From Candidatus Omnitrophota bacterium (lineage in GTDB: Bacteria; Omnitrophota; Gorgyraeia; Gygaellales; Profunditerraquicolaceae), in assembly GCA_030650425.1 (NCBI GenBank), contig JAUSED010000012.1, forward strand, positions 142,107-206,106: a stretch of DNA of 64,000 bases, given 5' to 3'. The position numbers were made by a program, and so were the translations under genes. This document shows, piece after piece, positions 145 to 42,129 of this stretch. Position 1 is the first letter of the stretch. Every line of letters starts with the position of its first letter. The notes below the pieces were generated by a model. That model made no database searches and was not told the DNA's origin. It was given only the letters and a program-made list of their open reading frames with translations.

Positions 145-918
145 GTGATGAATTCTACATACCTAAATATCGCCTTTGTGATGTATTTTCTGGCGACAGT
201 TTTTTATTGCGTAGGATTATTTTTCCGTAATAAATTCCTGCCGCTTTTGGGGAGAGTTTTTATTCTCTCGGGAGTTCTTAGCCTAACGCTGTATGCAGCT
301 ATGCGTTGGCAGGTCGCCGGAAGGCCGCCTTTAAGCAATATGTTCGAGTCGTTGGTGATCTTTGCCTGGGCAATCGGCTTGGTGCTTCTTTTCATTGATT
401 TAAGATATAAAATTAAAAGTGTTTCCGGCCTGACAGCCTTATTGGGTTTGTTGAGCTTGGGTTACGCCTCGTTTCTGGATAAAGAGTTAACCCCGCTGCT
501 GCCGGCCTTAAAAAGCAACTGGCTGACTATCCATGTATTAACCTGTTTTATCGGATACGCAGGCTTAACCGTGGGGTTTATTGCCAGCGCGGTTATCTTA
601 TTTAAGCAAAAAGAAATTGCTAAATTAGATACAATCGCGCATAAGGTGATTGCCTTTGGATTTTTATTTTTGACCTTGGGGATTATTACCGGCGCGGTTT
701 GGGCGAATTCTGCCTGGGGCACTTATTGGAGCTGGGATCCTAAAGAAACTTGGTCCTTGGTTACCTGGTTTATCTACGCCATCTATCTGCATATCCGTTT
801 TACCAAGGGTTGGAAAGAGCAGAAGGCAGCCTGGTTAGCGGTAATCGGGTTTTTAGCAATGTTATTTACTTATTTTGGGGTTAATTATTTACTATCAGGG
901 TTACATAGTTATGGATAA
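145..918 (+). CDS. ccsA: Cytochrome c biogenesis protein CcsA/ResC, the system II heme-handling membrane protein
   Basis: Polytopic membrane protein with the tryptophan-rich WWD-type motif WGTYWSWDPKETW. Two conserved His-containing loops are present. SD is aaaggagg. Confidence 0.75.
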   Translation: MMNSTYLNIAFVMYFLATVFYCVGLFFRNKFLPLLGRVFILSGVLSLTLYAAMRWQVAGRPPLSNMFESLVIFAWAIGLVLLFIDLRYKIKSVSGLTALLGLLSLGYASFLDKELTPLLPALKSNWLTIHVLTCFIGYAGLTVGFIASAVILFKQKEIAKLDTIAHKVIAFGFLFLTLGIITGAVWANSAWGTYWSWDPKETWSLVTWFIYAIYLHIRFTKGWKEQKAAWLAVIGFLAMLFTYFGVNYLLSGLHSYG

Positions 919-935
919 ATGAAAGGAGAAGTAAG

Positions 936-1589
936 TTGATGAGTAAAAACTTTTTAATCGGGTTATTGGTTTTAGCGGTAAGCCTTATAGCAGGGGATTT
1001 AGCTTTTGCTAAGATTACCGGTTCAGGTCATGATTTTTCATCGCAGGCATGGGAACTCAATCAGGAGATTTGTTTTCCGTGCCATATTCCGCATAATGCT
1101 ATGGCTAACACAGGCCAGGATAGATTGCCATTATGGAACCATGCTTTGACCACAGCCACATTCATCACCTATTCCAGTGATACCTTAGTTGCGGAAGACG
1201 TAGGTCAGCCGAGTTCTTCTTCTAAGGTCTGCTTAAGCTGTCATGATGGAACGGTTGCCCTGAATGCCTTTGGTGGTAGCACTGGGAGTTCTACCTTTGC
1301 GGTTGGGCCTTTAAAAGTCGGCACCGATCTTTCTCATAACCACCCCGTATCTTTTACTTATACTGCCACTTTAGTAAATAAGGACGGAGGCCTTAACGAT
1401 CCTTCAACGTCGGTATCTGCGTTAGGCGGTCAGACTATTGATTCAGGCATGCTTATCAAGGGTAAGGTTGAATGTTCCTCTTGTCATGATGTGCACGCAG
1501 CCAAAGGCAATGCTCAAACTGATAGTAGAAAACTATTGGTGGTAAGTATGGTACAAAGTGAGTTATGCTTAACTTGTCATAAGAAATAA
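936..1589 (+). CDS. Periplasmic tetraheme c-type cytochrome (doubled-CXXCH-like family)
   Basis: Signal peptide. Four CXXCH motifs: CFPCH, CLSCH, CSSCH, CLTCH. Its N-terminal module (CxxCHxPHNA...PLWN...CLSCHDGTVAL...HPVSF) is paralogous to the N-terminus of the ORF at 6483. Confidence 0.8.
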   Translation: MMSKNFLIGLLVLAVSLIAGDLAFAKITGSGHDFSSQAWELNQEICFPCHIPHNAMANTGQDRLPLWNHALTTATFITYSSDTLVAEDVGQPSSSSKVCLSCHDGTVALNAFGGSTGSSTFAVGPLKVGTDLSHNHPVSFTYTATLVNKDGGLNDPSTSVSALGGQTIDSGMLIKGKVECSSCHDVHAAKGNAQTDSRKLLVVSMVQSELCLTCHKK

Positions 1590-1596
1590 AATTAAA

Positions 1597-2658
1597 ATGC
1601 CAAGACTAAGGTTAGTTTATTTAATTCTTTTATTTTGTATTTCCGGCTGCGTAACCGCTTCCAAGATTACGCGGGAAAATATAGGGCCTATTTTTTACCC
1701 ATCTGCGCCTGATGCGCCGCGCATACAGTTTTTAGCCGCCTTTTCGTCTTCAGCTGACTTTGAAGGTTCGCCGAGTACATTTAGGAAATTCATTATCGGT
1801 GATGAGAAGGAGCGAAAGCCGATTGTCAAGCCTTATGGCGTGGCTGTGGATGGTCATAAGATCTATCTGTGTGATACGGTTAACAATACCATCGTTATAT
1901 TAGATTTTAGCGCAAGGAAATTTAGTTATTTTAATCCTAAGGGAAGGCTCCGTTTGCTTGAGCCGATTAATTTAGCCTTTGACGATAGTGGCAATATGTA
2001 TATTGCGGATGCCGGGCTGGGAGAAGTGGTAATTTTTGATAAGGATGGTAATTTTCTGGGGAGTATCGACAGGCAGGGGGAGCTTAAGCCCACCGGTGTT
2101 TTAATTAGCGGCCAAAATATTTATATTTGTGATTTAAAGACGCATTCGGTTAAAGCCTTTGACTTAAAAAGCAGGCAATATTTATTCAGCCTGCCCAGAG
2201 AAAACGCAAGCGAAGAAGCCAATCTTTTTTCTCCGACCAATATCGCCGCTGACGCGGAAGGGAATATTTATGTTTCAGATACCGGAGCATTTAGAGTGCA
2301 GAAATATAGCCCAAGCGGCGAATTCCTGCGCAGTATCGGCGCGCAGGGGGATTCTCTTGGCCGCTTCGCCCGGCCCAAAGGCATAGCGATAGATAAAAAT
2401 GGCAGGATCTATTGCGTTGACGCCGCCTTTGAAAATGTGCAGGTCTTTAACAAGCAGGCAAAGCTGCTTTTTTTCTTTGGAGAGCCGGCAAGCCCTGCAG
2501 CATTGGTTTTACCGGCAGGGATTGCTATAGATTATTCGTTAAAGGAATATTTTACCCCTTTGGCTGATCCGGGGTTTGAAATAGAATACCTTGTTTTAGT
2601 CACCAGCCAATATGGCGATAGAAAATTAAGCGTCTTTGGTTTTGGCCATAAAAAATGA
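1597..2658 (+). CDS. NHL-repeat (six-bladed beta-propeller) lipoprotein
   Basis: Signal peptide ending in a lipobox-like ISGC. Repeated NHL-like blades (IYVxD, IAxD, GxF). It is a paralog of the ORF at 5467, sharing the N-terminal motif P-AP--PRI-F. Confidence 0.65.
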   Translation: MPRLRLVYLILLFCISGCVTASKITRENIGPIFYPSAPDAPRIQFLAAFSSSADFEGSPSTFRKFIIGDEKERKPIVKPYGVAVDGHKIYLCDTVNNTIVILDFSARKFSYFNPKGRLRLLEPINLAFDDSGNMYIADAGLGEVVIFDKDGNFLGSIDRQGELKPTGVLISGQNIYICDLKTHSVKAFDLKSRQYLFSLPRENASEEANLFSPTNIAADAEGNIYVSDTGAFRVQKYSPSGEFLRSIGAQGDSLGRFARPKGIAIDKNGRIYCVDAAFENVQVFNKQAKLLFFFGEPASPAALVLPAGIAIDYSLKEYFTPLADPGFEIEYLVLVTSQYGDRKLSVFGFGHKK

Positions 2659-2710
2659 CAATGAAATTGTCATTGTGAGGCACGAAGTGCCGAATCAATC
2701 TTAAAATATT

Positions 2711-3256
2711 ATGATACGTAGATTATTTGTTTTATTTTTTTTTCTCCACTTTTTAAATGGCTGTAGTATCCAAGCCAAAGATAAATTATTACGCACTTTT
2801 TTTGACGGTGTGCCAGCCCCGGGGAAAGCTTCACCAATAGTTAAAGGAGAACACAAACAAGAGAACCAAGGAGTAAAGACAGAAAAGGTAGTACCGCAGG
2901 CCCCTATTCAATTCATCCATCAGCCTTTCTTAGAAAACCAGTGCGATGTCTGCCATGATACAAAATCTTCCCAGAAGCTGGTTTTAAAGGGTAAAGAATT
3001 ATGTTTTAGCTGTCACGATGATTTTACGAAAGATAAAAAGATAGCGCATTATCCGGTAAGCGAAGGCGCCTGTATTGATTGCCACGATCCGCATCAATCA
3101 GGGAATAAATTTATTTTAAAAGAAGCGCTGCCTAAGATTTGCTTTAATTGTCACGATGAAAAAGAGATAAGGGCAAACGTTGTTCATGAAGGCCAAAATA
3201 TTTGTAATGATTGCCATAATCCGCACGCTTCCAATGAGGAAAAATTACTGAAATGA
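2711..3256 (+). CDS. Pentaheme c-type cytochrome lipoprotein (c3/c7-like)
   Basis: Signal peptide with LNGC lipobox. Five CXXCH motifs: CDVCH, CFSCH, CIDCH, CFNCH, CNDCH. Confidence 0.8.
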   Translation: MIRRLFVLFFFLHFLNGCSIQAKDKLLRTFFDGVPAPGKASPIVKGEHKQENQGVKTEKVVPQAPIQFIHQPFLENQCDVCHDTKSSQKLVLKGKELCFSCHDDFTKDKKIAHYPVSEGACIDCHDPHQSGNKFILKEALPKICFNCHDEKEIRANVVHEGQNICNDCHNPHASNEEKLLK

Positions 3257-3576
3257 GAATCAAAGAAATCTTTCTTATAACTTTTATTCTGTTTTTGCCG
3301 TTAAGTATGATTTTGGCAGAAGGCCTGGACGAAAAAGCCCAGCTGCGCTATCAAGCGATGGAACAGGAGATGGATAAGCTTGCGGCGCGTAGAGATAAGG
3401 CAATGGAGGAAGCGATCAGGCCAAAGATAAGCAAAGATATGGCAGCCAGAGATAACTCGATGGATGAGACGATGGCTAAACTTACGCAAAAAAAGTCAAA
3501 AGAAAGGTTTTTTTTTACCCAAAAACCAAGCCTCTGGCTCTTGAGCCTAAAGCAGAATCCGATAATGCCCCGATAA
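3253..3576 (+). CDS. Small signal-peptide/coiled-coil ORF. It is probably the N-terminal part of the downstream outer-membrane protein gene, separated from it by a homopolymer frameshift.
   Basis: ATGA start/stop overlap with the upstream cytochrome gene. Clear signal peptide. A T9 run at 3508-3516 lies where the downstream ORF's frame is already open from 3480. Confidence 0.4.
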   Translation: MRIKEIFLITFILFLPLSMILAEGLDEKAQLRYQAMEQEMDKLAARRDKAMEEAIRPKISKDMAARDNSMDETMAKLTQKKSKERFFFTQKPSLWLLSLKQNPIMPR

Positions 3577-3632
3577 AGTTTTTCTCTCTGCAAAATACAC
3601 AAAATGCCGTTGAGTTTCGTTTTGAGAATGAA

Positions 3633-5465
3633 ATGGAAAGCAGCAGGACTACGTCTTCAGCAGTACCGTTTGATAGAAACAGATTATTATTTGAAGAACT
3701 GTTGGAGACTGATTTTAAGGGCTCAATCTACCATCCGAACTTTGCGGATATAGATATAAATTTGGAAAACGGTTTCAAGCAGACAAGCGAAAAATTTGAA
3801 CCCACTACAGAGGGTAAACTAAAGAATGGTTTCCTCAACCGTTTTCATATCTTATCCAGATTTTTCCGCCAGAAGCCCTATGCCTTTTCTTTATCCGCGG
3901 ATAGGTCAAGGCAGATCGAGAACCGGGAATTCTTCGAACGCCAGATTGTCGATGCTACTACCTACAGGGGTAGTTTTGGATTGAAGAATAAATTTATTCC
4001 TGCCAGTTTATTTGTGAGCAGTAGTTCCAAGACCATCGATAGGCAGGTAAGCCCGGTGGAGAAGATTGACGATAAACAGCTTAGGCTTAATTTAAGCAAT
4101 CAATCCGCGTTACTCGGAGAAACGCGTTTTGAGGCATCTCAAGATCAATTCTTACGCACAACATCCGACATCCCTGATCAAGAGGGGACAGCGCGCGATT
4201 TTGACCTTTGGAACCAAAAATCATTATCCGAAGATAATAAAAAACTCTTAAATTCCTCGTTACATTTTTATGGCCTTAGCGGAACAAGTAAAAGCAGCGC
4301 CTTCAATTTAAATGAAAACCTGAATATTGACCATACTGATTATTTAAACAGTGCCTACAATTACAATTTTCAGGATCGGACTTCTTCAGGCACAAGGATC
4401 AGGGATCATAAGTTTAACGCGGCTTTAAGGCACAGGTTCTATGAAAGCCTGACCTCTTTATTTAATCCGTATTATTTTAAAAGCGATAGCGCTTCTTTTT
4501 CACGGGAAACCCTTGGGTTTAATCTTGATGAAGATTATGTGAAAAAATTAGGTAAAATCGGAAGATTTAGCTCAGGTTTTGGTTTAAATTACGCGGAAGA
4601 ACAAAGAAAGGCATTCTCAGGCATTATTTCTATTATTGAAGAGCCGCATATCCTTAGGGCCGGCACCACTACATTTCTAGATCAGCCGAATGTGAATACA
4701 GCAACAGTGACTGTGAGAAGCTCAGATAAGCAGACTAAATATAACTTAGGCATTGATTATCAACTTAACAACGTCGGAGAGCGTACACAAATCCAAATAC
4801 TGTTGTCTGAACAGGGCCATACTATTACTGACGGAGCAGAAGTTTTAATTGATTATCAGGCGAGGGTTAGTCCATCCCTTAAATTCAATACCTTAGCTGA
4901 GAACTTTCGCTTACGTATGGATTTTCTTGATAACCTGTTTGGCGTATTCTATCGTTTAAATAAACAAGATCATCCAAGGGTTGTAGGCGATCAGGATAAC
5001 ACCTTGGAGACCCTTAGCGATACGGTTGTAGGCGTGGATTTTCATTTTAAAAACATAGACATCGAATTCGAAAATGAGGATTATGATTCTAATCTTTCTC
5101 CCTATAGGCAGATTAGGCTTAGGGAATCCGTATTTTTCAATCCTACTCCTGCGTCTACGTTAACCTTTCAATCTTCGCAAAGTAAAATTAGGCTGCTGAA
5201 TACGCGGGATACCCAGAAATTCTTTGATTTCATCAGCCGCTATTTTGTTAATTTAACTAGGCATATGCGTTTTAATGCTGAGGCAGGGTTTCGTTGGCAG
5301 GGTGGGGCAGGAGTTAGTTTGAATGATTTGATTGCCTCAGCAGGCTTTGAACTAAATTTAGGTAAATTCCTGATGGATATAAGGTATGATTTTAAGAATC
5401 AGTTAAATTTAGGCGAAAGATTAGTTAACCATTTCATCTTTACCAAGATCAAGCGTAAATTTTAA
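3633..5465 (+). CDS. Putative outer-membrane beta-barrel (porin-like) protein. It has no signal peptide of its own, and its frame is open upstream to 3480.
   Basis: 610 aa, rich in alternating-polarity beta-strand-like segments. The C-terminal residue is Phe (…KIKRKF), typical of OMP beta-barrels. No heme motifs. It is embedded in the cytochrome operon. Confidence 0.4.
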   Translation: MESSRTTSSAVPFDRNRLLFEELLETDFKGSIYHPNFADIDINLENGFKQTSEKFEPTTEGKLKNGFLNRFHILSRFFRQKPYAFSLSADRSRQIENREFFERQIVDATTYRGSFGLKNKFIPASLFVSSSSKTIDRQVSPVEKIDDKQLRLNLSNQSALLGETRFEASQDQFLRTTSDIPDQEGTARDFDLWNQKSLSEDNKKLLNSSLHFYGLSGTSKSSAFNLNENLNIDHTDYLNSAYNYNFQDRTSSGTRIRDHKFNAALRHRFYESLTSLFNPYYFKSDSASFSRETLGFNLDEDYVKKLGKIGRFSSGFGLNYAEEQRKAFSGIISIIEEPHILRAGTTTFLDQPNVNTATVTVRSSDKQTKYNLGIDYQLNNVGERTQIQILLSEQGHTITDGAEVLIDYQARVSPSLKFNTLAENFRLRMDFLDNLFGVFYRLNKQDHPRVVGDQDNTLETLSDTVVGVDFHFKNIDIEFENEDYDSNLSPYRQIRLRESVFFNPTPASTLTFQSSQSKIRLLNTRDTQKFFDFISRYFVNLTRHMRFNAEAGFRWQGGAGVSLNDLIASAGFELNLGKFLMDIRYDFKNQLNLGERLVNHFIFTKIKRKF

Positions 5466-5466
5466 T

Positions 5467-6486
5467 ATGTTTAAACCCAAACTCAAAAATTTATTTATAT
5501 TATTGATTTTCTTTTTTCAGGCTATAAATTGCGCATTTTGCGCTCAAGAAGAAGCTAGGATTGTCTGGCCAGCTGCGCCTTCTAGGCCGCGGATAGCTTT
5601 TGTCAGCTCTATTTATTCAGCGCAGGATCTAGGCATAAAAACAGGTTTTTTCCAGAAATTGAAGGCGATCATTTTTGGTACGCAGAGAGAAATTTTAAAT
5701 AAGCCGATGGCCGTGGCAGTGGATAAGGAGAGGGCAATTTACGTCTGTGACAGCGGGGATGCCTCGGTAAAGATATTTAAGCCGAAAGAAAAACTCTACC
5801 AGAAAATAACCAAGATTAACAATGAAGAGCTGATCTATCCTGTTGGTATAGCGGTAGCGGATGACGGCAGGGTTTTTATCTCTGATTCCACTTTGAAAAA
5901 AGTTTTCTGCTTGGACAAAAAGGCAAGGTATAAATTTACCATTGGCCAAGACAAAAGATTTTTAAGGCCTACAGGCTTAGCTGTGGCTTCCGGAAGGCTG
6001 TATGTTGTAGATACGCAGGCGCATAAGGTCATTATCTTTGATTTAATGGGTAATTTTATCCTAGAATTTGGCGCAAGAGGAAAAGGAGAGGGCGAATTTA
6101 ATTATCCTACCTCCATCGCTATTGATAATGAAAATAAAAGCTATATTGCGGATACAATGAACTGCAGGGCGCAGGTATTTGATAAAAATAACAAATTTTT
6201 ATACAGCTTGGGCCAGGCAGGGAACACCTCCGGTTCATTTAGCCGGCCTAAAGCTGTTGCGCTAGACAGCGAAGGCCATATCTATGTGGCCGATGGAATA
6301 TTTGATAATATTCAGATATTCAGCCAGAAGAGAGAATTCCTACTTTCAGTTGGCGAATCCGGACATAAGGATGGAGAATTTTGGATTCCCTCGGGTATTG
6401 CCATTGATGAGGATAATTATATCTATGTAGCGGATGCTTATAACCAGCGCATTCAAGTTTTTCGCTATATCGGGAGCGGGCAATGA
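5467..6486 (+). CDS. NHL-repeat beta-propeller protein (paralog of the ORF at 1597)
   Basis: Signal peptide and NHL-like repeats (IYVCD, VFISD, LYVVD, YIAD, IYVAD). Its stop overlaps the next start. Confidence 0.65.
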   Translation: MFKPKLKNLFILLIFFFQAINCAFCAQEEARIVWPAAPSRPRIAFVSSIYSAQDLGIKTGFFQKLKAIIFGTQREILNKPMAVAVDKERAIYVCDSGDASVKIFKPKEKLYQKITKINNEELIYPVGIAVADDGRVFISDSTLKKVFCLDKKARYKFTIGQDKRFLRPTGLAVASGRLYVVDTQAHKVIIFDLMGNFILEFGARGKGEGEFNYPTSIAIDNENKSYIADTMNCRAQVFDKNNKFLYSLGQAGNTSGSFSRPKAVALDSEGHIYVADGIFDNIQIFSQKREFLLSVGESGHKDGEFWIPSGIAIDEDNYIYVADAYNQRIQVFRYIGSGQ

Positions 6487-8204
6487 GTAAAGCCATCATC
6501 CATCATCCACTATTCGCTATAAGTTGTAGTCTTATGTTTTTGATTTTATCTTTTACGCCACCTTGCTTTGCCGGCAGTATTGTAAGTTCCAAACACAATC
6601 TTTCCTTAAGCGGGCCGGGAAATGTAAAAGCGTCTTCAGAAAGTGAAATTTGTATCTTCTGCCACACCCCGCATAATGCAAGCACGCAAGCGCCTTTATG
6701 GAACCGCTATGATTCAGGCCAGGTATATATTCCGTATACAAGCACGACCTTAAAAGCCAAAACCGGGCAGCCTACCGGCGCGTCTAAACTTTGCCTGAGC
6801 TGTCATGATGGAACGGTGGCTTTGGGTATGGTGCGTTCACGCAGCCAGCCTATTCAGTTTACCCAAGCTTTGACAGGAGAGGATAACCTTAGCACGGATT
6901 TATCTAATGACCATCCGGTATCGTTTAGATATGATTCCTCGCTTGCCTCTACAAATGGCCAGCTAAAAGATCCTGCTGGATTTAGCGGCTCTATTCGTCT
7001 GGATAAAGATGCTCAACTGCAATGCACAAGCTGTCATGATCCGCACAATGACCAGTTTGGGTCTTTCTTAAGAGTTGATGCTGCGCGGGGATCTTTATGC
7101 CTCACCTGTCACACGATGAACGGCTGGGATGAATCTATACACAAAAATTCAACCGCTTCCTGGAATGGCGCGTCTACCAACCCCTGGAAGCATACAGCGT
7201 GGAATAATGTGGCTGATAACGCCTGTCAGAATTGCCATACCCCCCATAACGCTGGAGGCAAGAAACGTTTATTGAATTATACCAACGAAGAGGATAACTG
7301 CTTATCTTGCCATAATGGAAATGTGGCGCAAAAGAATATACTTTCCGAATTTAATAAAATAAGCACTCATCCTATTTACAATGCTTCTGGTTTGCATGAT
7401 CCAGCGGAAGAGACGATCGTTACCTCCAATAGGCACGTGGAATGCGCGGATTGTCATAATCCTCATGCTGCCTCGGATACTGCTTCCGGTTCTCTTCCGG
7501 GCGCGTTAAGGAAGGTAAGAGGGGTAAACGCGCAAGGATTAGCTGTTGATGAGATTAAGAATGAATATGAACTATGTTTTCGTTGCCACGCGGACAGTAA
7601 TTATACAGGCCGTTTCTATACTAACCGTCAATACCCGGAGAGTAACGTGCGGCTTCAATTTGATCCTTCCAATCAGTCGTATCACCCGATAGAAAATATC
7701 GGCAGGAATGCGAATGTTCCGAGTTTAGTCGCGGGGTTGACAAACTCAAGCATAATCAGATGTATTGATTGTCATAATAACAATGCCAGCCGGGGAAATT
7801 TTGGTGTAGGCCCCGAAGGGCCGCACGGTTCGCTTTATAGCCCGCTCTTAGCGAGGAATTTAATCTTTGGAGATTATCAGGGGGAGAGCCTAAACACTTA
7901 CGCGCTCTGTTATAAATGCCATGATCGGAGCAGTATCTTAGGCAATAAGAGCTTTTCAAAACATAGAAAACATATTGTTGACGCGCATGCCCCTTGTACT
8001 GCCTGCCACGATCCGCATGGTGTAAGAAATACCCCGCATCTGATAAATTTTGACCGTAATATTGTCGGTGCGTATTCTTATGACGATGAAGCAGGAGAAG
8101 GATCTTCTTATACATCCGAGCCTTCTTATCAAAGCAACGGCCCTTTGCACGGGTCGTGCACGCTCACCTGCCATGGTAAAGGGCATAGGGGCAAACGCTA
8201 TTAA
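6483..8204 (+). CDS. Large periplasmic c-type cytochrome with 11-12 hemes
   Basis: Eleven CXXCH motifs plus one possible CX3CH (CTLTCH). The N-terminal module is paralogous to the ORF at 936. Confidence 0.8.
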   Translation: MSKAIIHHPLFAISCSLMFLILSFTPPCFAGSIVSSKHNLSLSGPGNVKASSESEICIFCHTPHNASTQAPLWNRYDSGQVYIPYTSTTLKAKTGQPTGASKLCLSCHDGTVALGMVRSRSQPIQFTQALTGEDNLSTDLSNDHPVSFRYDSSLASTNGQLKDPAGFSGSIRLDKDAQLQCTSCHDPHNDQFGSFLRVDAARGSLCLTCHTMNGWDESIHKNSTASWNGASTNPWKHTAWNNVADNACQNCHTPHNAGGKKRLLNYTNEEDNCLSCHNGNVAQKNILSEFNKISTHPIYNASGLHDPAEETIVTSNRHVECADCHNPHAASDTASGSLPGALRKVRGVNAQGLAVDEIKNEYELCFRCHADSNYTGRFYTNRQYPESNVRLQFDPSNQSYHPIENIGRNANVPSLVAGLTNSSIIRCIDCHNNNASRGNFGVGPEGPHGSLYSPLLARNLIFGDYQGESLNTYALCYKCHDRSSILGNKSFSKHRKHIVDAHAPCTACHDPHGVRNTPHLINFDRNIVGAYSYDDEAGEGSSYTSEPSYQSNGPLHGSCTLTCHGKGHRGKRY

Positions 8205-8370: not shown

Positions 8371-8892
8371 TTAGATAATAGAAGAGAGTTTCTTATGCAG
8401 CTTTACAATATCTTCTAATTCCTTTTTCTTCAGCAGAGAGTCTATGGTAGTATGTAAATCAAGCCGACGGTGATCAAGATAACCCGCTGTGTGATTAAAT
8501 TCTTTAATCAGCTCACGGGTATCTTTGTTACCGCGTAGGTCTATTCGAAAAGCCGTGTTATTATTTTTAAGATTCTCTAAACCCTGGATAATTTTAGAAA
8601 ATAAGTTGTGGAGATTAAGATAGACGATTAATATAATAACGCAAGCCAAAAAGATACTCCCTAAAATCATCCAGATATTTACCTTGAGCACTATTGGGCT
8701 GATAATTTCCAAGCTTCGATTAAAGCTTACATGGGAACTGAATGCCGCATCCTCAAGCGCCTTTGCCGATAAGATATATATGGCAAATCCCGCGGCGATA
8801 ACTTCTATAAACAAAAACAGGGTAAAACCTAAAATAAAGGTAAGCTGAAAGTTTCCTTTTAGAAGAAATGGTTTTCTTTTTTGGTTACTCAT
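8371..8892 (-). CDS. Small membrane protein: 2 TM helices plus a HAMP-like domain, with no output domain
   Basis: Two hydrophobic helices are followed by a HAMP-like segment (…DTRELIKEFNHTAGYL). It overlaps the upstream cytochrome gene by 4 nt. Confidence 0.5.
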   Translation of the reverse strand: MSNQKRKPFLLKGNFQLTFILGFTLFLFIEVIAAGFAIYILSAKALEDAAFSSHVSFNRSLEIISPIVLKVNIWMILGSIFLACVIILIVYLNLHNLFSKIIQGLENLKNNNTAFRIDLRGNKDTRELIKEFNHTAGYLDHRRLDLHTTIDSLLKKKELEDIVKLHKKLSSII

Positions 8893-9668
8893 TTTTTATG
8901 GCAAGCTAAACAAAGCCTGCTTTTTCGGTTATCCATTACCAGCATATTACGATCTTTGCTATATATATCATGACAGGAGAGGCAGCCGAGCCTCCCGTTA
9001 AAAAGCTGGATTTCTTTCGGCAATAATTCTGAGTTCGTAAAATCTGCTGAGCGCGGATAATCTACGCCGATTGGATGGCTCATTCCGATACCGTGCTGCC
9101 ATAGGCCTTGTTTTACTTCCACCTGCGGGAATTTAGAAATAGTCCCGTCGTGGCAGCTCAAGCACTCAGTGGAAGTCTTATCCAGCATGGAGCCGCCGGT
9201 AGTTTCTAGGAGTTTACCCGCAGGGTGCGCGTACTGTATCACTGTTTGATGCCGCCAAGCCGCATCCTGCTTGGTATTGTCATGGCATAATAAGCAGAAG
9301 GCCTTGCCTTTTACGTGGCCCCAAAGCAGGCCGCTTAGTTCAGCCTTATTTTGGGTTTTATCTTCTTTGTGCACGTCATGACAGGTAGTGCAAGTCATCC
9401 GGCCGCCTTTATCCAGATGCATTGTTAAAGGAATAGCCTTGTTTGGCTTGATATTAATCGGATGAGATTTTTCTCGGTTTATTATATGGCACTTGTAACA
9501 TAGTACGTCAGTCTCGGCAACCAAGAAGGTTAAATCCTGGCTGCTCACATGGCAGATTGCGCATTTGCCTTCAAAGTTATGTACCTTAGAGTTTGAAATT
9601 GCCCAGATCAGGCAAAAGCCAGAAATTAAAAATAGAAAACCGAAGAATAAAATCCTAAACTTCTTCAT
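8889..9668 (-). CDS. Membrane-anchored heptaheme c-type cytochrome
   Basis: N-terminal TM/signal anchor. Seven CXXCH motifs: CAICH, CYKCH, CTTCH, CLLCH, CLSCH x2, CLACH. Confidence 0.8.
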   Translation of the reverse strand: MKKFRILFFGFLFLISGFCLIWAISNSKVHNFEGKCAICHVSSQDLTFLVAETDVLCYKCHIINREKSHPINIKPNKAIPLTMHLDKGGRMTCTTCHDVHKEDKTQNKAELSGLLWGHVKGKAFCLLCHDNTKQDAAWRHQTVIQYAHPAGKLLETTGGSMLDKTSTECLSCHDGTISKFPQVEVKQGLWQHGIGMSHPIGVDYPRSADFTNSELLPKEIQLFNGRLGCLSCHDIYSKDRNMLVMDNRKSRLCLACHKK

Positions 9669-9725
9669 TTAGAAAAACCGTCATTGCGAGGACCCGCCGC
9701 AGGCAGGGCCGAAGCAATCTCTTTC

Positions 9726-10301
9726 CTAATTATAAATATCCTTTATTTTCAGATAAATCTTCTCTAATTCTGTTAATTTAGGATTAAAATCTTCCTCACC
9801 AAGTTTACCTTCTTTTTTTAACGCTTCACAAACATCGATAATTCCCTGCGCTTCAGCCAAAAGGGATTGCGCTTTTATAGAATTTTCTTTTTGGCTCATA
9901 ACTACTTCGGAAAAAGCCTGCGCCAAGCCATGCAGTTGATCATTAGCCCTAAAGGTGATCGGTTCTTTAAGTGATTTTCCCTGGCCAATCTCTTTTAAAT
10001 ACCTTCTAAACCGAAACACCGGTCCGGCAATACTATGCGACCAGAATAAGGCAGCGAATAATGCAATCGTACCTAATGACACTGCTTGAATAAATGTAGT
10101 TACTAAAATTGTGTAGGGGAGAAGGGCTTTAAGCTGGTTAAGGCTGGCAATCCCTTCTAAATAGGTAGGCCCGATATTTTTGTTCAGAAAAATAAGTATG
10201 GTTAAGCCAAAGACCAAGCAGCCGGTTAAAACAATAACCGCGAAGCGAAAAACAAAGGTAACCGTATGTTTTGGTTCTAATATCCCTCTAAATTTACGCA
10301 C
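9726..10301 (-). CDS. Small membrane protein: 2 TM helices plus a HAMP domain, with no output domain
   Basis: TM-loop-TM followed by a canonical HAMP-like sequence (SIAGPVFRFRRYLKEIGQG…NDQLHGLAQAFSEV). It is the first gene of the minus-strand operon. Confidence 0.5.
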   Translation of the reverse strand: MRKFRGILEPKHTVTFVFRFAVIVLTGCLVFGLTILIFLNKNIGPTYLEGIASLNQLKALLPYTILVTTFIQAVSLGTIALFAALFWSHSIAGPVFRFRRYLKEIGQGKSLKEPITFRANDQLHGLAQAFSEVVMSQKENSIKAQSLLAEAQGIIDVCEALKKEGKLGEEDFNPKLTELEKIYLKIKDIYN

Positions 10302-20576: not shown

Positions 20577-20783
20577 ATGGAAAAATTACTCACTTTATAT
20601 GAATTGGCGGATTATCTTAAGGTAGATAAGTTTACTATCTACCGTATGGTTTATCGGAAACAGCTGCCTGCGATTAAGGTCGCCAACCAGTGGCGCTTTA
20701 AGGAAAAAGATATAGAGCGCTGGCTGGAAAAGAATAAAAATTACACAATCAAAAGAAAGAAGAGGAGGGCGTTTATATGTTAG
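20577..20783 (+). CDS. Excisionase-type (HTH_17/MerR-like) DNA-binding protein, partner of Fic
   Basis: YELADYLKVDKFTIYRMVYRKQLPAIKVANQWRF motif. Overlaps the fic start. Confidence 0.55.
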   Translation: MEKLLTLYELADYLKVDKFTIYRMVYRKQLPAIKVANQWRFKEKDIERWLEKNKNYTIKRKKRRAFIC

Positions 20784-21511
20784 AGATACTTTCAGAGATA
20801 GACAGGCTTCAAGAAGAAATTAATTCTTTTAGGCCGCTAGCGCCAAACACGCTAAAGCAGTTAAAAGAATATTATCGAGTGGGTTTGACTTATAGCTCTA
20901 ACGCCTTAGAAGGTAACTCTCTTACCGAAACTGAGACAAAGGTAGTTTTAGAGGATGGAATAACCATAGGAGGAAAGCCGATTAAAGATTACTACGAGGC
21001 ATTGGGGCATAGCGAGGCTTATGATTATATCTATAAGTTATCCAAAGAGAGAGGGTTCACAGAAAACGACATTAAGAAACTGCATAAACTATTTTACCAT
21101 AGAATTGACGAGGCGCGCTCGGGCAGATACAGAAAAGAAAAAGTTTTAATCTCCGGCTCAAAATATCCTTTGCCGGGCCCTGAAAAAGTTCCCGAACTTA
21201 TGGAAGGATTTATCAAAAAGATGGAAGGTTCGGCGAAGAAAAACCACCCGGTTGTGTATTCAGCCCTTGCTCATAAAGAACTTGTTTTTATACATCCTTT
21301 CGTGGATGGTAACGGCAGGGTTGCAAGGCTCTTAATGAATCTGATCTTGCTGCAAAATGGCTATTGTATAGCGCTAATCCCGCCTATACTACGAAGGGAC
21401 TATATCAACGCATTAGAGAAGGCGCATACAGATGATAAGGAGTTTAGCGAGTTTATTTCAAGAGCGGTAAGGGAAACGCAGAAAGATTACCTGAGGCTTT
21501 TAAGGGGATAA
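20777..21511 (+). CDS. fic: Fic/Doc family protein (AMPylase-type)
   Basis: Canonical Fic motif HPFVDGNGRVARLL. Confidence 0.85.
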   Translation: MLEILSEIDRLQEEINSFRPLAPNTLKQLKEYYRVGLTYSSNALEGNSLTETETKVVLEDGITIGGKPIKDYYEALGHSEAYDYIYKLSKERGFTENDIKKLHKLFYHRIDEARSGRYRKEKVLISGSKYPLPGPEKVPELMEGFIKKMEGSAKKNHPVVYSALAHKELVFIHPFVDGNGRVARLLMNLILLQNGYCIALIPPILRRDYINALEKAHTDDKEFSEFISRAVRETQKDYLRLLRG

Positions 21512-21527
21512 AAATAGAACCGTCCCC
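21508..21527. repeat. AAAAATAGAACCGTCCCC motif copy at the fic 3' end, with a short hairpin (agaacc…ggttct)
   Basis: The same 18-mer occurs at 8348-8366 and twice, inverted, at 40327-40391. Confidence 0.4.
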
Positions 21528-21698
21528 AGGTTCTTCTGAGGTGTTTCTGGTAGGGCTAAAGGCCTAGAATAATATAGGTCTTTTTATTTTTAGGGAAAAG
21601 GACTTTCGGCCCTTGTGGGTAGGCTTAAAATCACTATAATGATTGAAAAAAACTAACAATTCGCCCGCCAGTAAATCCTTGGCCGGCTCACTAAAAAT

Positions 21699-22346
21699 AT
21701 GAAGTGGTTTATTTCCCACGAGACAATCAGGTCGCCCTTTCTAAAGACTTTGGAAAAAGATTGCGGCGAAAAGATCAGCCATTGTTATCAATGCGGCAAA
21801 TGTTCCGCGGGCTGTCCTATCTCTTATCAGATGGACTACCTGCCGAATCAAATTATCCGGATGGTCCAGTTGGGGATGGAGGAGCAGGTTTTATCCAGTA
21901 AAACCATCTGGCTCTGCGCCTCTTGCCTTACTTGCACCTCCAGATGCCCCCGTCAGATCAATGTTGCTGAAATTATGGATTATCTGCGCAGGCGCGCTTA
22001 TACCAAGCATATGACCCCGCCGGGAGAAATCGAGGTCCCTCTCTTTAATAAGATTTTTTTAAGGAACATAGAATTACACGGAAGGCTTTTTGAATTAGGG
22101 CTTATCGGTATGTTTAATCTCTTAAGCGGAAAATTTTTTAAAGACGTGGCTTTGGCGCCAAGGATGTTCCTCAAGCGTAAAATCGGCTTGTTCCCGCACA
22201 AAATTAATAATTCAAAAGAGGTCAAGGAAATTTTTAAGAAATCCGGTAAATTAGGGAGAGCCAGAAGAGATAAATTATGGCAGCCTAAGCTTTTATTTTT
22301 GAATTTATCCAGAAAACTTATCGAGCGAATAGAGAGACTAAAATGA
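21699..22346 (+). CDS. hdrC: Heterodisulfide reductase subunit C-like protein (two 4Fe-4S clusters)
   Basis: Two CxxCxxCxxxCP motifs (CYQCGKCSAGCP, CASCLTCTSRCP). Confidence 0.6.
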   Translation: MKWFISHETIRSPFLKTLEKDCGEKISHCYQCGKCSAGCPISYQMDYLPNQIIRMVQLGMEEQVLSSKTIWLCASCLTCTSRCPRQINVAEIMDYLRRRAYTKHMTPPGEIEVPLFNKIFLRNIELHGRLFELGLIGMFNLLSGKFFKDVALAPRMFLKRKIGLFPHKINNSKEVKEIFKKSGKLGRARRDKLWQPKLLFLNLSRKLIERIERLK

Positions 22347-22398
22347 ACATTTCGATTACACTCAGTGTTCATGGTGAGCGAGCGAAGCGAGTCGAACC

Positions 22399-23280
22399 AT
22401 GAAATACGCCTATTATCCCGGTTGTTCTTTGCATTCAACCGCCAAAGAATATGACCTTTCCACAAGAGAGGTAGCTAAAGCGCTGGGTATCGAACTTATT
22501 GAGATCCCCGATTGGATCTGCTGCGGAGCAACACCCGCGCATATCACCATGCACCTCTTGTCGCTTGCCCTACCGGTTAAAAATATCATTAAAGCCCGGG
22601 CAATGGGTTCTTATGAGATAGTTACCTGCTGCGCCGCTTGTTTTAGCCGCTTAAAGACCGCCAATTATTTTATGCGGACTGATGATGAGCACCGGCAAAA
22701 GGTTGAGCAAATAGTGGGCGAGCCGTATAAAGGCGAAGTTAAGGTGAGGCATTTTCTGGATGTGCTGGTAAATGATTTTGGCTTAAAAAACCTAAAAGGA
22801 AATTTGGTGAAGGAGCTGAAGGGTTTGAAAGTCGCTTGTTATTATGGTTGCCTGCTTACCCGTCCTCCGGAAATTACCGAGTTAGATGATTTAGAAGATC
22901 CGCATTTAATCGATGACCTTATGCGCACGATCGGCGTAGAACCTGTGCAATGGCCTTATAAAACCGAATGCTGCGGAGCAAGTTTTTCTCTGACTAAAAC
23001 TGATATTGTCTTAAAGCTTTCTTGCGATATATTGCAAATGGCCTATGACGAAGGCGCTCAGGCGATTGTGGTTGCCTGTCCGCTCTGCCAGTCGAATCTT
23101 GACCTTAGGCAGTCAACAATTAATAAAAAATACAAAAAAGATTTTAATCTGCCTATTTTTTATTTTACGCAATTAATAGGGCTCGCCTTAGGCATTGATG
23201 GTAAAAAGTTAGGATTAGATAAACATATTGTTCCTCCTGCAGCGTTATTAGGAGAGAAAGATAAGTTAGCTAAAATATGA
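22399..23280 (+). CDS. hdrB: Heterodisulfide reductase subunit B-like protein (CCG domains)
   Basis: MKYAYYPGCS N-terminus and two CCG-domain motifs (WICCGATP, CCGASFS). Confidence 0.75.
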   Translation: MKYAYYPGCSLHSTAKEYDLSTREVAKALGIELIEIPDWICCGATPAHITMHLLSLALPVKNIIKARAMGSYEIVTCCAACFSRLKTANYFMRTDDEHRQKVEQIVGEPYKGEVKVRHFLDVLVNDFGLKNLKGNLVKELKGLKVACYYGCLLTRPPEITELDDLEDPHLIDDLMRTIGVEPVQWPYKTECCGASFSLTKTDIVLKLSCDILQMAYDEGAQAIVVACPLCQSNLDLRQSTINKKYKKDFNLPIFYFTQLIGLALGIDGKKLGLDKHIVPPAALLGEKDKLAKI

Positions 23281-25241
23281 AAATCGGTGTTTTTGTCTGT
23301 CACTGTGGAACAAATATCGCCGCTACCGTGGATGTAGAAAAGGCGGCCAAGGCCGCCTTAAATTTGGCGAAGGTAAAATTTTCCACTACTTATAAATATA
23401 TGTGTTCTTCACCCGGGCAGGCTTTAATTAAAGACGCGATCAAAGAAAAAGGATTGGACAGGATTGTAGTTTGCGCCTGCAGCCCCAGCCTTCACGAAAA
23501 AACATTCAGAGAATGCTTGAAAGAAAGCGGGATAAATCCTTATTTATTAGAGATTGCCAATATCCGCGAGCATTGTTCTTGGGTCCATCGGGATAGAGAG
23601 ACTGCCACGCGGAAGGCGATTGAAATTATGAAGCTTGCCGTAACTAAAGTTACGCATAATCGGCCCCTTGAGAAAACCCATATGCCGATAGAAAAGAGAG
23701 TTTTGGTGATCGGAGGCGGGATTTCAGGTATCCAGTCAGCCATCGATATTTCTTTCGCTAAATTCCCTGTGGTGATTGTGGAGAGAGAGGCCTCAATCGG
23801 CGGGAGAATGGCAAGGTTTGATAAGACCTTTCCTACCTTAGATTGCGCGGCTTGTATTTTAACGCCTAAGATGGTCACGGTCGCTCAGAATAAATATGTA
23901 ACATTGCATACTTATGCTGAAATAGAAGAGGTTACCGGCCATGTGGGTGATTTTAAGGTTAAGATTAGAAAAAAGGCACGCTTTGTAGATACGTCTAAAT
24001 GTACCGGCTGCGGCGCCTGTTGGAATAAATGTCCGGCAAAAGTAGCTTCTGAATTTGACTTAGGTTTATGCAAAAGAACCGCCATCTATACCCCCTTTCC
24101 TCAAGCTGTCCCCAATATACCGGTGATCGACCGCGAAAACTGCCTTTATCTTAAATCCAAGAAATGCGGCCTCTGCCAAAAAGTTTGCCCTTTTGGGGCG
24201 ATAAACTACCAGATGCAAGATGAAATCATTGAAGAGAAATTCGGGGCGATTATCGTGGCTACCGGTTTTACGCAATTTGACCATTCTGTCTATGGCGAGT
24301 ACGGTTACGGAAAATATAGAGATGTGATTACCGGTTTGCATTTTGAACGCATGGCAAATTCTTCCGGCCCCACCGGGGGTAAGATTATCCGGCCATCTGA
24401 TGGTAAGGTTGCGCGGGATGTAGTTTTTATCCAGTGCGTAGGCTCGCGTGATGAACAAAAGGGCGTATCTTATTGTTCAAGGCTCTGCTGTATGTATACG
24501 GCAAAACACGCATTGCTGCTTAAAGAACATAATCCGGACTCCCAAGCCTATGTCTTTTATATTGATATCCGGGCAGCGGGTAAAAATTACGAAGAGTTTG
24601 TGAAAAAAGTACAGAATGAATACGGAGCGGTTTATTTAAGAGGGAGGGTTTCCCGGATTTTTGAAAAGGGAGGAAAGCTCATTGTCAGAGGCGCGGATAC
24701 TTTAAGCGGCGCTCAAATTGAAATCAAGGCGGATCTGGTGGTTTTGGCTGTGGGTTTAATCGCCCAGAACGATGCGGCAAAACTCGCCCAGATGCTGCAT
24801 ATACCTTATGATCAGAACAATTTATTTACCGAAGCGCATCCTAAGTTGGCGCCGGTAGAGACGATCACTAGCGGCGTATTCTTAACCGGAGCCTGCCAAT
24901 CGCCCAAGGATATCCCCGATACGGTTGCCACAGCCTCAGCTGCTTCAGTCAAGGCGTTAGGGCTTTTAGTACAGGATCAATTGGAAAAAGAGCCATTAGT
25001 GGCCCGGGTAGATAAAAATCTCTGTTCCGGTTGTCAGGCCTGCATTAAAGCCTGTTCTTTTAATGCCATCGAAACAAAAGAAGTAGAAGATAGGGCGCTT
25101 AAAAGGAAGAGAACTGTGGCTGAGGTGATTGAGGGTGTATGTTCTGGTTGCGGCAATTGCACAGCAGTATGCCGTATGTCCGCGATAGATTTGGAAGGAT
25201 TTTCTAACCGGCAGATTATGGAAGAGATAGAGGTTTTATGA
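23277..25241 (+). CDS. hdrA: Heterodisulfide reductase subunit A-like FAD/FeS flavoprotein
   Basis: FAD-binding motif VLVIGGGISG and several ferredoxin-type Cys clusters. 654 aa. Confidence 0.75.
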   Translation: MKIGVFVCHCGTNIAATVDVEKAAKAALNLAKVKFSTTYKYMCSSPGQALIKDAIKEKGLDRIVVCACSPSLHEKTFRECLKESGINPYLLEIANIREHCSWVHRDRETATRKAIEIMKLAVTKVTHNRPLEKTHMPIEKRVLVIGGGISGIQSAIDISFAKFPVVIVEREASIGGRMARFDKTFPTLDCAACILTPKMVTVAQNKYVTLHTYAEIEEVTGHVGDFKVKIRKKARFVDTSKCTGCGACWNKCPAKVASEFDLGLCKRTAIYTPFPQAVPNIPVIDRENCLYLKSKKCGLCQKVCPFGAINYQMQDEIIEEKFGAIIVATGFTQFDHSVYGEYGYGKYRDVITGLHFERMANSSGPTGGKIIRPSDGKVARDVVFIQCVGSRDEQKGVSYCSRLCCMYTAKHALLLKEHNPDSQAYVFYIDIRAAGKNYEEFVKKVQNEYGAVYLRGRVSRIFEKGGKLIVRGADTLSGAQIEIKADLVVLAVGLIAQNDAAKLAQMLHIPYDQNNLFTEAHPKLAPVETITSGVFLTGACQSPKDIPDTVATASAASVKALGLLVQDQLEKEPLVARVDKNLCSGCQACIKACSFNAIETKEVEDRALKRKRTVAEVIEGVCSGCGNCTAVCRMSAIDLEGFSNRQIMEEIEVL

Positions 25242-25663
25242 CAGGGGACAGAAGTGAGTGGGAGCCGAAAATAGTGGGATTCTTGTGCAATTGGTGCAGT
25301 TATGCCGGAGCGGATTTGGCCGGGCAATCACGCTTGGAATATCCGCCAAATGTAAAGATTATCCGGGTGCCTTGTTCAGGGAGGGTAAATCCTCTTTTTG
25401 TTTTGAAGTGCCTGTCCAGCGGCGTAGATGGGGTACTGATTTCAGGTTGCCATACCGGTGATTGCCATTATTCCGAGGGAAATTTTCACGCGCGCAGAAG
25501 ATTCACTATATTAAGGAAACTTTTTGAATATTTAGGCATAGATCCCAAGAGGTTTCAGATGGCCTGGGTTTCTGCTTCTGAGGCGGATAAATGGGCAAAA
25601 TTAGTTAAAGGGTTGGTGGAAGAGATTAGACAGGCAGGGCCGAATAAGCTGGGGCATAGGTAA
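25238..25663 (+). CDS. mvhD: MvhD/FlxD-type hydrogenase delta-subunit-like [2Fe-2S] protein
   Basis: KIVGFLCNWCSYAGADLAG…IRVPCSGRV…SGCHTGDCHY. Confidence 0.8.
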   Translation: MTGDRSEWEPKIVGFLCNWCSYAGADLAGQSRLEYPPNVKIIRVPCSGRVNPLFVLKCLSSGVDGVLISGCHTGDCHYSEGNFHARRRFTILRKLFEYLGIDPKRFQMAWVSASEADKWAKLVKGLVEEIRQAGPNKLGHR

Positions 25664-25664
25664 A

Positions 25665-26549
25665 ATGAGCGAAGAATTAAAAAACAAGGCCAAAGAATTA
25701 TTAACCAATAAAAAAGTAGATTTGATTATCGGCTATCAAAGGGCAGCGGACGGAGTTTTAGCCGCGCCTTGTTTTATCGATAGCCAAGATGACGCGGAGA
25801 AACTGATCTGGGATTCCTACTGCGTATATAATCTGGCTAGTTATTTAAAGGATTTCCCCGCGAAAAGAAAAGGGATAGTTGTAAAGGTCTGCGATCTAAA
25901 GTCAATCACCGTCCTGCTTCAGGAGAATCAAGTGAAGCGGGAGGAGCTGTTGATCATCGCTGCTTCCTGTCCGGGTGTAATCGATGAAAAAAGATTAAAC
26001 CCGCTTGATCAGCAGGCCCAAGAGATCGTCTTTGCGGGAAAATGTAAAACCTGTAAAACCATAACACCCGCCTATTATGATATCTTGATCAACGAACCGC
26101 AAAAAAATGACAAGCTATCTGAAATCGGGCAGGATGAATATGAGCCTGTGCGTAAATTAGAAGCAAAGTCTATAGAGGAGAGGTTTAAATTCTGGGAGAG
26201 TGAATTCTCCCGCTGCATCCGTTGTTATGCCTGCCGGCAGATCTGTCCTTTATGTTACTGTCCGAAGTGCGTGGCAGAGCAGATTACGCCGGGTTATTTC
26301 TCAAAAGGCGTTAATTTAGAAGGGAATCTCTCCTGGAATATTACGCGGGCGATGCATCTGGCCGGCAGGTGCATTGATTGCGGGGAGTGCGAAAGGGCCT
26401 GTCCCGTAGGTATTCCATTAAGAGATATCAATAAAAAAATAGAAAAAGAGATCAAGGAATTATTTAAATATGAAGCCGGCTTAAGCGTAGAGCAAAAGCC
26501 TCTCTTAAGTTGTTTTGATAAAAGCGACCCGGAAGATTTTATTAAATAG
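25665..26549 (+). CDS. Iron-sulfur protein (FlxC-like)
   Basis: Cys clusters CIRCYACRQICPLCYCPKC and CIDCGECERACP. Sits directly downstream of mvhD. Confidence 0.5.
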   Translation: MSEELKNKAKELLTNKKVDLIIGYQRAADGVLAAPCFIDSQDDAEKLIWDSYCVYNLASYLKDFPAKRKGIVVKVCDLKSITVLLQENQVKREELLIIAASCPGVIDEKRLNPLDQQAQEIVFAGKCKTCKTITPAYYDILINEPQKNDKLSEIGQDEYEPVRKLEAKSIEERFKFWESEFSRCIRCYACRQICPLCYCPKCVAEQITPGYFSKGVNLEGNLSWNITRAMHLAGRCIDCGECERACPVGIPLRDINKKIEKEIKELFKYEAGLSVEQKPLLSCFDKSDPEDFIK

Positions 26550-26556
26550 AAAAATT

Positions 26557-27546: not shown

Positions 27547-27554
27547 GAGGAGAG

Positions 27555-28382: not shown

Positions 28383-28394
28383 AGGGAGGTAAAA

Positions 28395-28793: not shown

Positions 28794-28800
28794 TTTCCTT

Positions 28801-30114: not shown

Positions 30115-30130
30115 TCAGTGAAGGCGCCCG

Positions 30131-30904: not shown

Positions 30905-30906
30905 AG

Positions 30907-38910: not shown

Positions 38911-38975
38911 ATTTAGCTGAAAGCATAAAATATATCTATCCGGAAATAATCCTGCTTGTTTTTGCGCTGGCCATC

Positions 38976-42107: not shown

Positions 42108-42129
42108 ATACAGCATAAGGATTGGCAAG

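Follow-up and report, generated by a model that had tools for sequence, protein, structure and literature searches.

What kind of machinery is encoded by the compact row of six genes found at positions 936-8204 of a 64,000-nucleotide stretch of DNA (hereinafter, the window) from a Candidatus Omnitrophota bacterium, in which multihaem cytochromes are interspersed with NHL beta-propeller proteins and a putative outer-membrane beta-barrel? The Omnitrophota are very small, mostly uncultured bacteria. A first-pass annotation of this DNA, made without database searches, took the row for a candidate porin-cytochrome electron conduit of unusual composition. Our analysis leads to the conclusion that the locus is a known kind of cluster, of the sort that is found in Geobacter-like metal reducers, and not a new type of conduit; it is the phylum that is new. 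More specifically, we propose, with a probability of roughly 0.6, that these genes encode an OmcE/Uet-type extracellular electron-transfer module. We favor this reading because one of the cytochromes is homologous to OmcE and another carries an OmcE-like head in which all eight histidine ligands are kept, because the parts list is that of the omcE clusters, because the barrel has the appropriate predicted fold, because several products have homologues in the Geobacter sulfurreducens reference locus, and because the gene order is conserved among relatives; a complex I-type respiratory chain that is encoded elsewhere in the window is also counted in its favor.

The OmcE-like cytochromes and their partners

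The product of the first gene of the row (936-1589) is, to judge by its sequence, a full-length homologue of OmcE, the nanowire subunit of Geobacter and Desulfuromonas. In phmmer searches, it matches over its full length the chains 7tfs_A of G. sulfurreducens (E=2e-21) and 9yuq_N of Desulfuromonas soudanensis (E=5e-17), which come from the structures of OmcE (PDB 7TFS; PMC12954529) and of an OmcE filament (PDB 9YUQ; bioRxiv 10.1101/2025.10.22.684050), respectively; in a BLASTP comparison with the G. sulfurreducens reference locus (L008), it is 34% identical to OmcE (E=4e-27). All eight histidines and eight cysteines that make up the four CXXCH motifs and the four distal ligands are invariant in an 11-sequence alignment, and the protein combines the features by which we recognize the OmcE family, namely, a length of about 200-235 residues, four CXXCH motifs together with four conserved histidines, and colinearity with the solved filaments. 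This identity had been missed by the first-pass annotation, which saw a 4-haem cytochrome.

What could such a protein do? OmcE filaments are held together by one inter-subunit His-haem bond (PMC12307469, PMC12954529); in the polymerising OmcE, eight histidines serve the four haems, with one of the bonds being inter-subunit. The protein encoded in the window has a ninth conserved histidine, H69, within a PLWNH motif, as do all tetrahaem OmcE-like proteins that accompany this family of barrels. At the same position, an arginine is found in the two experimentally polymerising OmcEs, in two further Geobacter-type OmcEs and in the head of the 12-haem protein, and a glycine in the 5-haem paralogues from two related loci (L001 and L021). 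Petersen et al. have argued that a filament stopper should be an OmcE-like protein with nine histidines and four haems, and found no such gene in omcE operons (bioRxiv 10.1101/2025.10.22.684050). Tandem OmcE-like paralogues with a fifth CXXCH and the glycine lie between nine-histidine tetrahaem genes in some of the related loci (L001, 6345-8349; L020, 5159-7157; L021, 219-866), and these match the 5-haem 'leaky' OmcE-like family that was predicted by the same authors.

The last gene of the row (6483-8204) encodes a protein that has been counted as a 12-haem cytochrome; the tally of four and five CXXCH motifs for the first two cytochromes of the row is correct, whereas this protein contains not 12 such motifs but 11 and a CX3CH (CTLTCH), which is invariant, including its Cys and His, in 72 aligned homologues. 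Its N-terminal portion, residues ~15-211 (nucleotides 6525-7115), is an OmcE-like tetrahaem head that retains all eight histidine ligands, as indicated by the match to a hidden Markov model (HMM) of the OmcE family (E=7.6e-54, residues 19-211) and by the similarity to the OmcE structures (7tfs_A, E=3.7e-28; 9yuq_N, E=4.5e-24). Furthermore, 7TFS is the sole significant Foldseek match of the AlphaFold2 model of this protein, and this match is the only use that we make of the model, to the exclusion of any arguments on shape. The N-terminus of the 12-haem protein is paralogous to the tetrahaem protein (41% identity, E=2e-32), as had been surmised from a common N-terminal module; the further idea that a cytochrome-plus-NHL module was duplicated around the barrel is not supported, and the arrangement is better described as one OmcE-like protein accompanied by a 12-haem protein whose head is OmcE-like. 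We also considered the possibility that the 12-haem protein consists of three fused OmcE modules. Only the first of these is significant (with the HMM E-value given above), whereas the colinear matches further along the protein cover no more than brief stretches around haem motifs (E=6e-4 to 0.03), which leaves the idea weak. Homologues at or above 51% identity number more than 7,976 and are distributed among Omnitrophota, Kiritimatiellia, Verrucomicrobia, Nitrospinota and Nitrospirota.

The two NHL proteins, designated A (1597-2658) and B (5467-6486), are paralogues (31% identity, E=3e-50) that do share the previously noticed N-terminal motif (P-xP-xPRI-F), and both match, by BLASTP, the NHL protein encoded in the omcE cluster of G. 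sulfurreducens (E=1e-33 for A; 35% identity, E=4e-60 for B). That both are lipoproteins is clear for A, with its ISGC lipobox that, along with the N-terminal motif, is kept in relatives; in B, the lipobox (AINC) is atypical. Candidate assignments to the scytonemin protein ScyF or to CIS12 were rejected given that the matches were far below the cutoffs and reflected generic NHL similarity. The pentahaem lipoprotein resembles MtrA (6r2q_A, E=1.9e-15) and shows 39% local identity (BLASTP) to a 370-residue, 9-haem protein of the G. sulfurreducens cluster. In the relatives, the pentahaem lipoprotein gene always lies directly 5' of the barrel gene and the gene for NHL protein B directly 3' of it. 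In distant relatives, the lipoprotein cytochrome 5' of the barrel is enlarged, to 874 residues with about six pentahaem-like repeats in L004 (7380-10004) and to 397 residues in L005 (8811-10004); these enlarged forms keep the lipobox and the FFDGV motif and have no match in the precomputed Pfam annotation.

All products of the row are Sec-exported, and the cytochromes adjoin the CcsBA haem-attachment system: open reading frame (ORF) listing and translation place ccsA/ccsB directly 5' of the cytochrome/NHL/barrel row, with all genes on the + strand. The window ccsB is 44% identical (BLASTP) to that of the G. sulfurreducens omcE locus, and ccsA/ccsB is syntenic in L001, L015, L018 and L020; resB is expected beyond the window start and was found in L001. 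The tight coupling of the genes downstream of ccsA that the first-pass annotation described is evident from the ORF coordinates, with intergenic gaps of 1-52 nucleotides and ATGA overlaps of start and stop codons at 3253-3256 and 6483-6486. Scans for promoters and terminators yielded no more sites than in shuffled sequence.

The barrel gene and the conservation of the locus

The product of 3480-5465 is predicted, from an AlphaFold2 model built on a 53-sequence alignment (predicted local distance difference test, pLDDT, 87.7), to be a large outer-membrane beta-barrel: the model is all-beta, with about 30 long strands, as counted from the DSSP string only, and an inserted domain (near residues 382-462 of the 661-residue reading). 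The approximately 700-residue barrel of the first-pass annotation is not a single ORF spanning 3253-5465. The N-terminal piece (3253-3576) and the 610-residue frame 3633-5465, which lacks a signal peptide, do not share a reading frame; both pieces are covered by full-length homologues of about 720-740 residues, and addition of one base in either of two homopolymers, A7 or T9, produces an uninterrupted ORF of 737 codons that aligns with these homologues end to end. An independent Logan contig (run SRR13727527) shows the identical frame break, with 0 mismatches in 4,833 bases, so that the break is not an artefact of one assembler. Because the barrel gene is intact in all relatives, the break is not a conserved recoding site either. 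In this population, the break may have inactivated the barrel or left it dependent on slippage for its rescue.

The barrel has no match among the Pfam and NCBIfam porin families. An exhaustive profile search delineates a family of 3,150 representative clusters at E<=1e-3 (1,551 at E<=1e-30); with thousands of clusters and no porin-family match, this is a large family that is not curated in the libraries used. PF27730, a family absent from the Pfam copy used, is present in some of the barrel homologues. A match of the inserted domain (residues ~391-486 of the 661-residue reading) to a phage tail-tube family of NCBIfam (E=5.8e-8) scores 32.5 bits where 60 are required, and we do not consider it meaningful.

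How stable is this arrangement? Related loci were collected by two routes: barrel homologues (19-54% identity) led to five, and a metagenome scan with 15 closer sequences to twelve. The order in every locus with sufficient flanks is ccsA, one to four OmcE-like genes, NHL, lipoprotein cytochrome, barrel, NHL and 12-haem cytochrome, followed by a trio of genes that is discussed below. This order is identical in L001, L013-L015 and L018-L020 and, as far as the flanks reach, in the shorter loci L016, L017 and L021-L024. At 25-29% barrel identity (L004 and L005), the order of the lipoprotein cytochrome with its FFDGV motif, barrel, NHL and 11+1-haem genes is kept; at 19% (L006), that of barrel, NHL and 11+1-haem genes. 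L006 carries c7-type genes and looks intermediate towards the Uet clusters (see below). The first-pass annotation had named two outcomes that would speak against it, a product with no predicted barrel and a lack of conserved co-occurrence in related genomes; given that a barrel is predicted and that the genes do co-occur, neither was observed.

Although the genes assigned to 936-8204 are indeed there, the conserved unit reaches further, to 10301 on the minus strand. The three-gene unit 8371-10301, two small membrane proteins flanking a heptahaem cytochrome, belongs to the same system: the trio is retained alongside the cluster in six related loci, convergent in most of them and co-directional in L019. 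In its C-terminal half, the heptahaem protein is similar to the second half of OmcE (OmcE residues 102-232, E=8e-6). Neither of the two membrane proteins has an output domain. The trio may serve as a point of electron entry at the inner membrane, or else as a sensor of redox state.

Known clusters, a possible mechanism and its rivals

The closest counterparts of the locus are the omcE clusters of Desulfuromonadia. The smallest of these, located beside resB/ccsB, encode OmcE and a large beta-barrel together with a pair of multihaem cytochromes and a pair of beta-propeller lipoproteins (bioRxiv 10.1101/2025.10.22.684050); the clusters of G. sulfurreducens (GSU0615-0618 and the barrel) and D. soudanensis (DSOUD_2954), with barrels of about 740-750 residues, have the same parts list and the same position after resB/ccsB as the window, where an OmcE gene and a large barrel gene are accompanied by two propellers and two multihaem cytochromes beside ccsB. 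The G. sulfurreducens reference locus was found through the OmcE sequence of the PDB alignment, and three further Geobacter-type loci were added; a search of species-representative genomes with a 20-nucleotide GSU0616 primer (PMC1829397) gave only a chance match, to the gene for a TonB-dependent receptor in a Verrucomicrobia metagenome-assembled genome of high GC content (L007, CAIYFP010000399.1). OmcE, NHL, ccsB and the smaller cytochrome are homologous between the two systems. The gene order in Desulfuromonadia is different, however; the glycosylation gene block of those clusters is missing in the window; the large cytochrome of the window is the 12-haem protein with its OmcE-like head, for which no orthologue was found in the G. 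sulfurreducens locus; and the free OmcE-like protein of the window has the ninth histidine. Orthology of the barrel and both multihaem cytochromes with those of the Desulfuromonadia clusters was not found.

The second comparison is with the Uet cluster of Ca. Tenderia electrophaga and Gallionella, which encodes the tetrahaem UetA, UetC with 28 predicted strands, the NHL proteins UetH/I, the undecahaem UetJ and ccsAB, and whose authors raised the possibility of polymer formation (bioRxiv 10.1101/2022.05.06.490989; PMC9900912). Likened by composition and gene adjacency alone, Uet and the window share a tetrahaem cytochrome, a large barrel, two NHL proteins, ccsA/ccsB and, immediately following an NHL gene, an 11/12-haem gene of the 'doubled CXXCH / cytochrome c3 family'. 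The Uet cluster has additional parts, a prolyl isomerase (UetB), three c7-type trihaem cytochromes (UetDEG) and a cupredoxin (UetF), none of which were detected between positions 1 and 10301 in the ORF listing and the Pfam/NCBIfam scans, and it lacks a pentahaem lipoprotein in the position where the window has one.

Propeller lipoproteins in the company of multihaem cytochromes are also documented in the D. ferrophilus island DFE_0448-0465 (PMC8322314, PMC9769857), in the 'core four' of the partner bacteria of anaerobic methanotrophic archaea (PMC5539420), in Dethiobacter, and in the osc operon of OmcS, in which a propeller lipoprotein (OscD) and the OscEFG channel are found and a role in export as chaperones has been proposed (as cited in PMC13194489). 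In the D. ferrophilus, 'core four' and osc loci, which have been implicated in extracellular electron transfer, six-bladed propeller lipoproteins are genetically linked with large multihaem cytochromes and with a pentahaem lipoprotein, a resemblance in composition to the window; unlike the window, those loci encode 16- and 26-haem cytochromes and a prolyl isomerase, and no porin is apparent in D. ferrophilus. Thus, the composition of the locus, which the first-pass annotation considered unusual on the grounds that NHL partners were foreign to conduits, is not: propellers have been described in the omcE, Uet, D. ferrophilus, 'core four' and osc loci. By contrast, its view of the barrel, with a lipoprotein multihaem cytochrome on one side and a long, Sec-exported one on the other, as the parts list of a porin-cytochrome system holds up. 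All three types of component, barrel, multihaem cytochrome and lipoprotein cytochrome, are present and always adjacent; insertion of the cytochrome in the barrel is putative, the 12-haem model having a pLDDT of 65.4. Compared to MtrCAB and the Geobacter conduits (OmaB/OmbB/OmcB, ExtEFG), the barrel of the window has more strands and no porin-family homology, and NHL propellers and OmcE-like modules are present; no member of the MtrA/DmsE decahaem family was detected, with DmsE scores of 61.7 and 58.2 bits, well short of the cutoff of 192 bits.

Several observations weigh against an OmcE/Uet-type module. The barrel could not be connected to its 750-residue Geobacter-type counterpart by BLASTP, by hhalign (probability 0.5% for the single sequence and 9% for a four-sequence profile) or by a 172-sequence barrel HMM, whose sole match, at the C-terminus, scored 8 bits. 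BLASTP detected no orthologue of the 12-haem protein in the G. sulfurreducens locus L008, where the best match of this protein is OmcE itself, so the core of the window cluster differs from that of the characterised omcE cluster. AlphaFold2 models the 12-haem protein poorly, with pLDDT falling below 50 for residues 36-144. The nine-histidine signature speaks against polymerisation of the only free OmcE-like protein of the window, L005 has the core with no OmcE-like gene within 10 kb, and the barrel gene is frame-broken. Finally, the lineage is known from genes alone.

If the locus does encode an OmcE/Uet-type module, how might this module operate? By analogy with MtrA in MtrB, the 12-haem cytochrome would sit in or through the barrel and, together with the barrel and the pentahaem lipoprotein, form a haem chain across the outer membrane. 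Its OmcE-like head, conceivably an open module of the polymer type that is anchored at the barrel, could be a docking site for subunits of the OmcE family, via the inter-subunit His-haem bond. Since the only free subunit in this genome is of the nine-histidine type, this tetrahaem protein may cap the head as a short, defined stack rather than extend into a long wire; in relatives that have 5-haem paralogues in tandem, longer wires may be assembled. The NHL lipoproteins would be scaffolds or assembly factors, by analogy with OscD, and the membrane-protein/heptahaem trio would supply or sense electrons at the inner side. Electrons could flow either way, to reduce external acceptors or to be taken up. 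A more daring possibility, which we put forward tentatively and consider quite unlikely, is that the 12-haem cytochrome is the missing base, or anchor, of OmcE-type wires: the head would accept or donate the inter-subunit bond, the eight further haems would run through the barrel, the nine-histidine protein would correspond to the stopper, or cap, that Petersen et al. predicted, and the window would hold a minimal, capped, wire-less form of the system.

Could a simpler scheme accommodate the same facts? The locus might encode a plain porin-cytochrome conduit devoid of any OmcE-type assembly, the model of the first-pass annotation, in which the 12-haem cytochrome threads the barrel, the pentahaem lipoprotein occupies the outer face, the tetrahaem protein is a monomeric shuttle in the periplasm or at the surface, and the propellers are passive structural partners. 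The adjacency of the three component types is what such a conduit would have; on balance, we find this explanation unlikely: the tetrahaem protein retains every ligand and the N-terminal histidine of the polymerising OmcE, the head of the 12-haem protein is of the eight-histidine OmcE type, with arginine at the PLWNR position as in the polymerising OmcE, and up to five OmcE-like genes occur in tandem in relatives.

By analogy with what has been proposed for OmcS, the barrel could instead be mainly a secretion or usher-like pore and an anchor for subunits of the OmcE family, with the propellers acting as export chaperones. This we regard as distinctly improbable because the barrel gene is always located between the genes for the lipoprotein cytochrome and the 12-haem protein, even where no OmcE-like gene is nearby (L005), and because the cluster includes no gene for a chaperone or a prolyl isomerase. 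There is also the possibility that the locus is a decaying, non-functional copy, with the frameshift marking a pseudogene in this population; the occurrence of the frame break in two assemblies, when the genes are intact in all relatives, points in this direction. The lesion, however, is single and located at a homopolymer, all the other genes are intact, the 610-residue downstream frame is free of stops and 43-60% identical to close, Omnitrophota-type relatives, and the T9 run could allow slippage or else the consensus may under-call the homopolymer. Hence decay appears to be the least credible of these explanations, with very little chance of being correct, and the OmcE/Uet-type module remains our preferred reading.

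Features of the window and implications for Omnitrophota

The features of the conserved unit are collected in Table 1.

Table 1. Coordinates of the genes and sequence features of the conserved unit, with supporting details
Feature	Position	Strand	Details
ccsA/ccsB, system II cytochrome c haem lyase/exporter	145-918	+	PF01578 E=5.6e-51; TIGR03144 E=1.4e-78
OmcE-family tetrahaem cytochrome (by sequence), 217 residues	936-1589	+	Sec signal peptide, AFA|K; 4 CXXCH; 4 distal His; ninth His H69 (PLWNH)
NHL six-bladed beta-propeller lipoprotein A, 353 residues	1597-2658	+	Lipobox ISGC; YPxAPxxPRIxF near N-terminus; Pfam NHL E=1.4e-19
Pentahaem lipoprotein cytochrome, 181 residues	2711-3256	+	Lipobox LNGC; FFDGVP motif; 5 CXXCH; Paired_CXXCH_1 E=3.8e-30
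Barrel gene, N-terminal fragment, 107 residues	3253-3576	+	Signal peptide and coil; aligns to residues 1 to ~90 of full-length homologues
Predicted barrel body, 661-residue reading	3480-5465	+	~28-30 strands; C-terminal KRKF
Homopolymers A7 (3488-3494) and T9 (3508-3516)	3488-3516	.	One-base shortfall in one run breaks the barrel frame
NHL six-bladed beta-propeller protein B, 339 residues	5467-6486	+	Atypical lipobox AINC; Pfam NHL E=3.6e-35
Dodecahaem cytochrome, 573 residues	6483-8204	+	Sec signal peptide; 11 CXXCH and one CX3CH (CTLTCH)
Membrane protein, 173 residues	8371-8892	-	2 transmembrane helices and HAMP-like segment; syntenic in L001, L014, L015, L018, L019, L020; weak match to NblS HAMP region
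Heptahaem cytochrome, 259 residues	8889-9668	-	N-terminal hydrophobic anchor or signal; 7 CXXCH; ends CHKK
Membrane protein, 191 residues	9726-10301	-	2 transmembrane helices and HAMP-like segment; syntenic in L001, L015, L018, L019, L020; no Pfam family

Beyond the trio, the segment 10430-19371 looks like a polymorphic toxin locus, encoding a 478-residue secreted protein with dockerin, PKD and Fn3-associated domains and then a 2,502-residue RHS/YD-repeat protein in which a glycine-rich hydrophobic stretch precedes a C-terminal domain of unknown function. Genes for a Fic-domain protein and a PilS-like histidine kinase are found within 20777-40328, Hdr/Mvh-like iron-sulfur flavoprotein genes at 21699-28382, and genes for complex I subunits of the NuoD, NuoH and NuoL/M/N types at 32199-40328; no NuoEFG-type module was detected among the ORFs scanned. 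Farther downstream are the genes for a metallophosphoesterase-rubrerythrin fusion protein (42061-43395) and for a TolC-like outer-membrane efflux protein (45141-46775).

What does this locus tell us about the spread of nanowire-type cytochromes? Homologues of omcE clusters have been reported in five phyla, and Omnitrophota is not among these (bioRxiv 10.1101/2025.10.22.684050); our literature search found no paper in which Omnitrophota are mentioned together with OmcE. The present findings place OmcE-type cytochrome machinery in this phylum. They also show that the core of barrel, NHL protein and 12-haem cytochrome is among the commoner outer-membrane cytochrome modules in metagenomes, yet it comes without a Pfam barrel family (in the copy used) and without experimental study. 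The OmcE-like head fused to the 12-haem protein and the nine-histidine tetrahaem partner are features specific to this lineage. If the 12-haem protein and its nine-histidine partner are indeed the anchor and the cap, this would explain how nanowires are joined to the cell, electrically and mechanically, and how their length is set.

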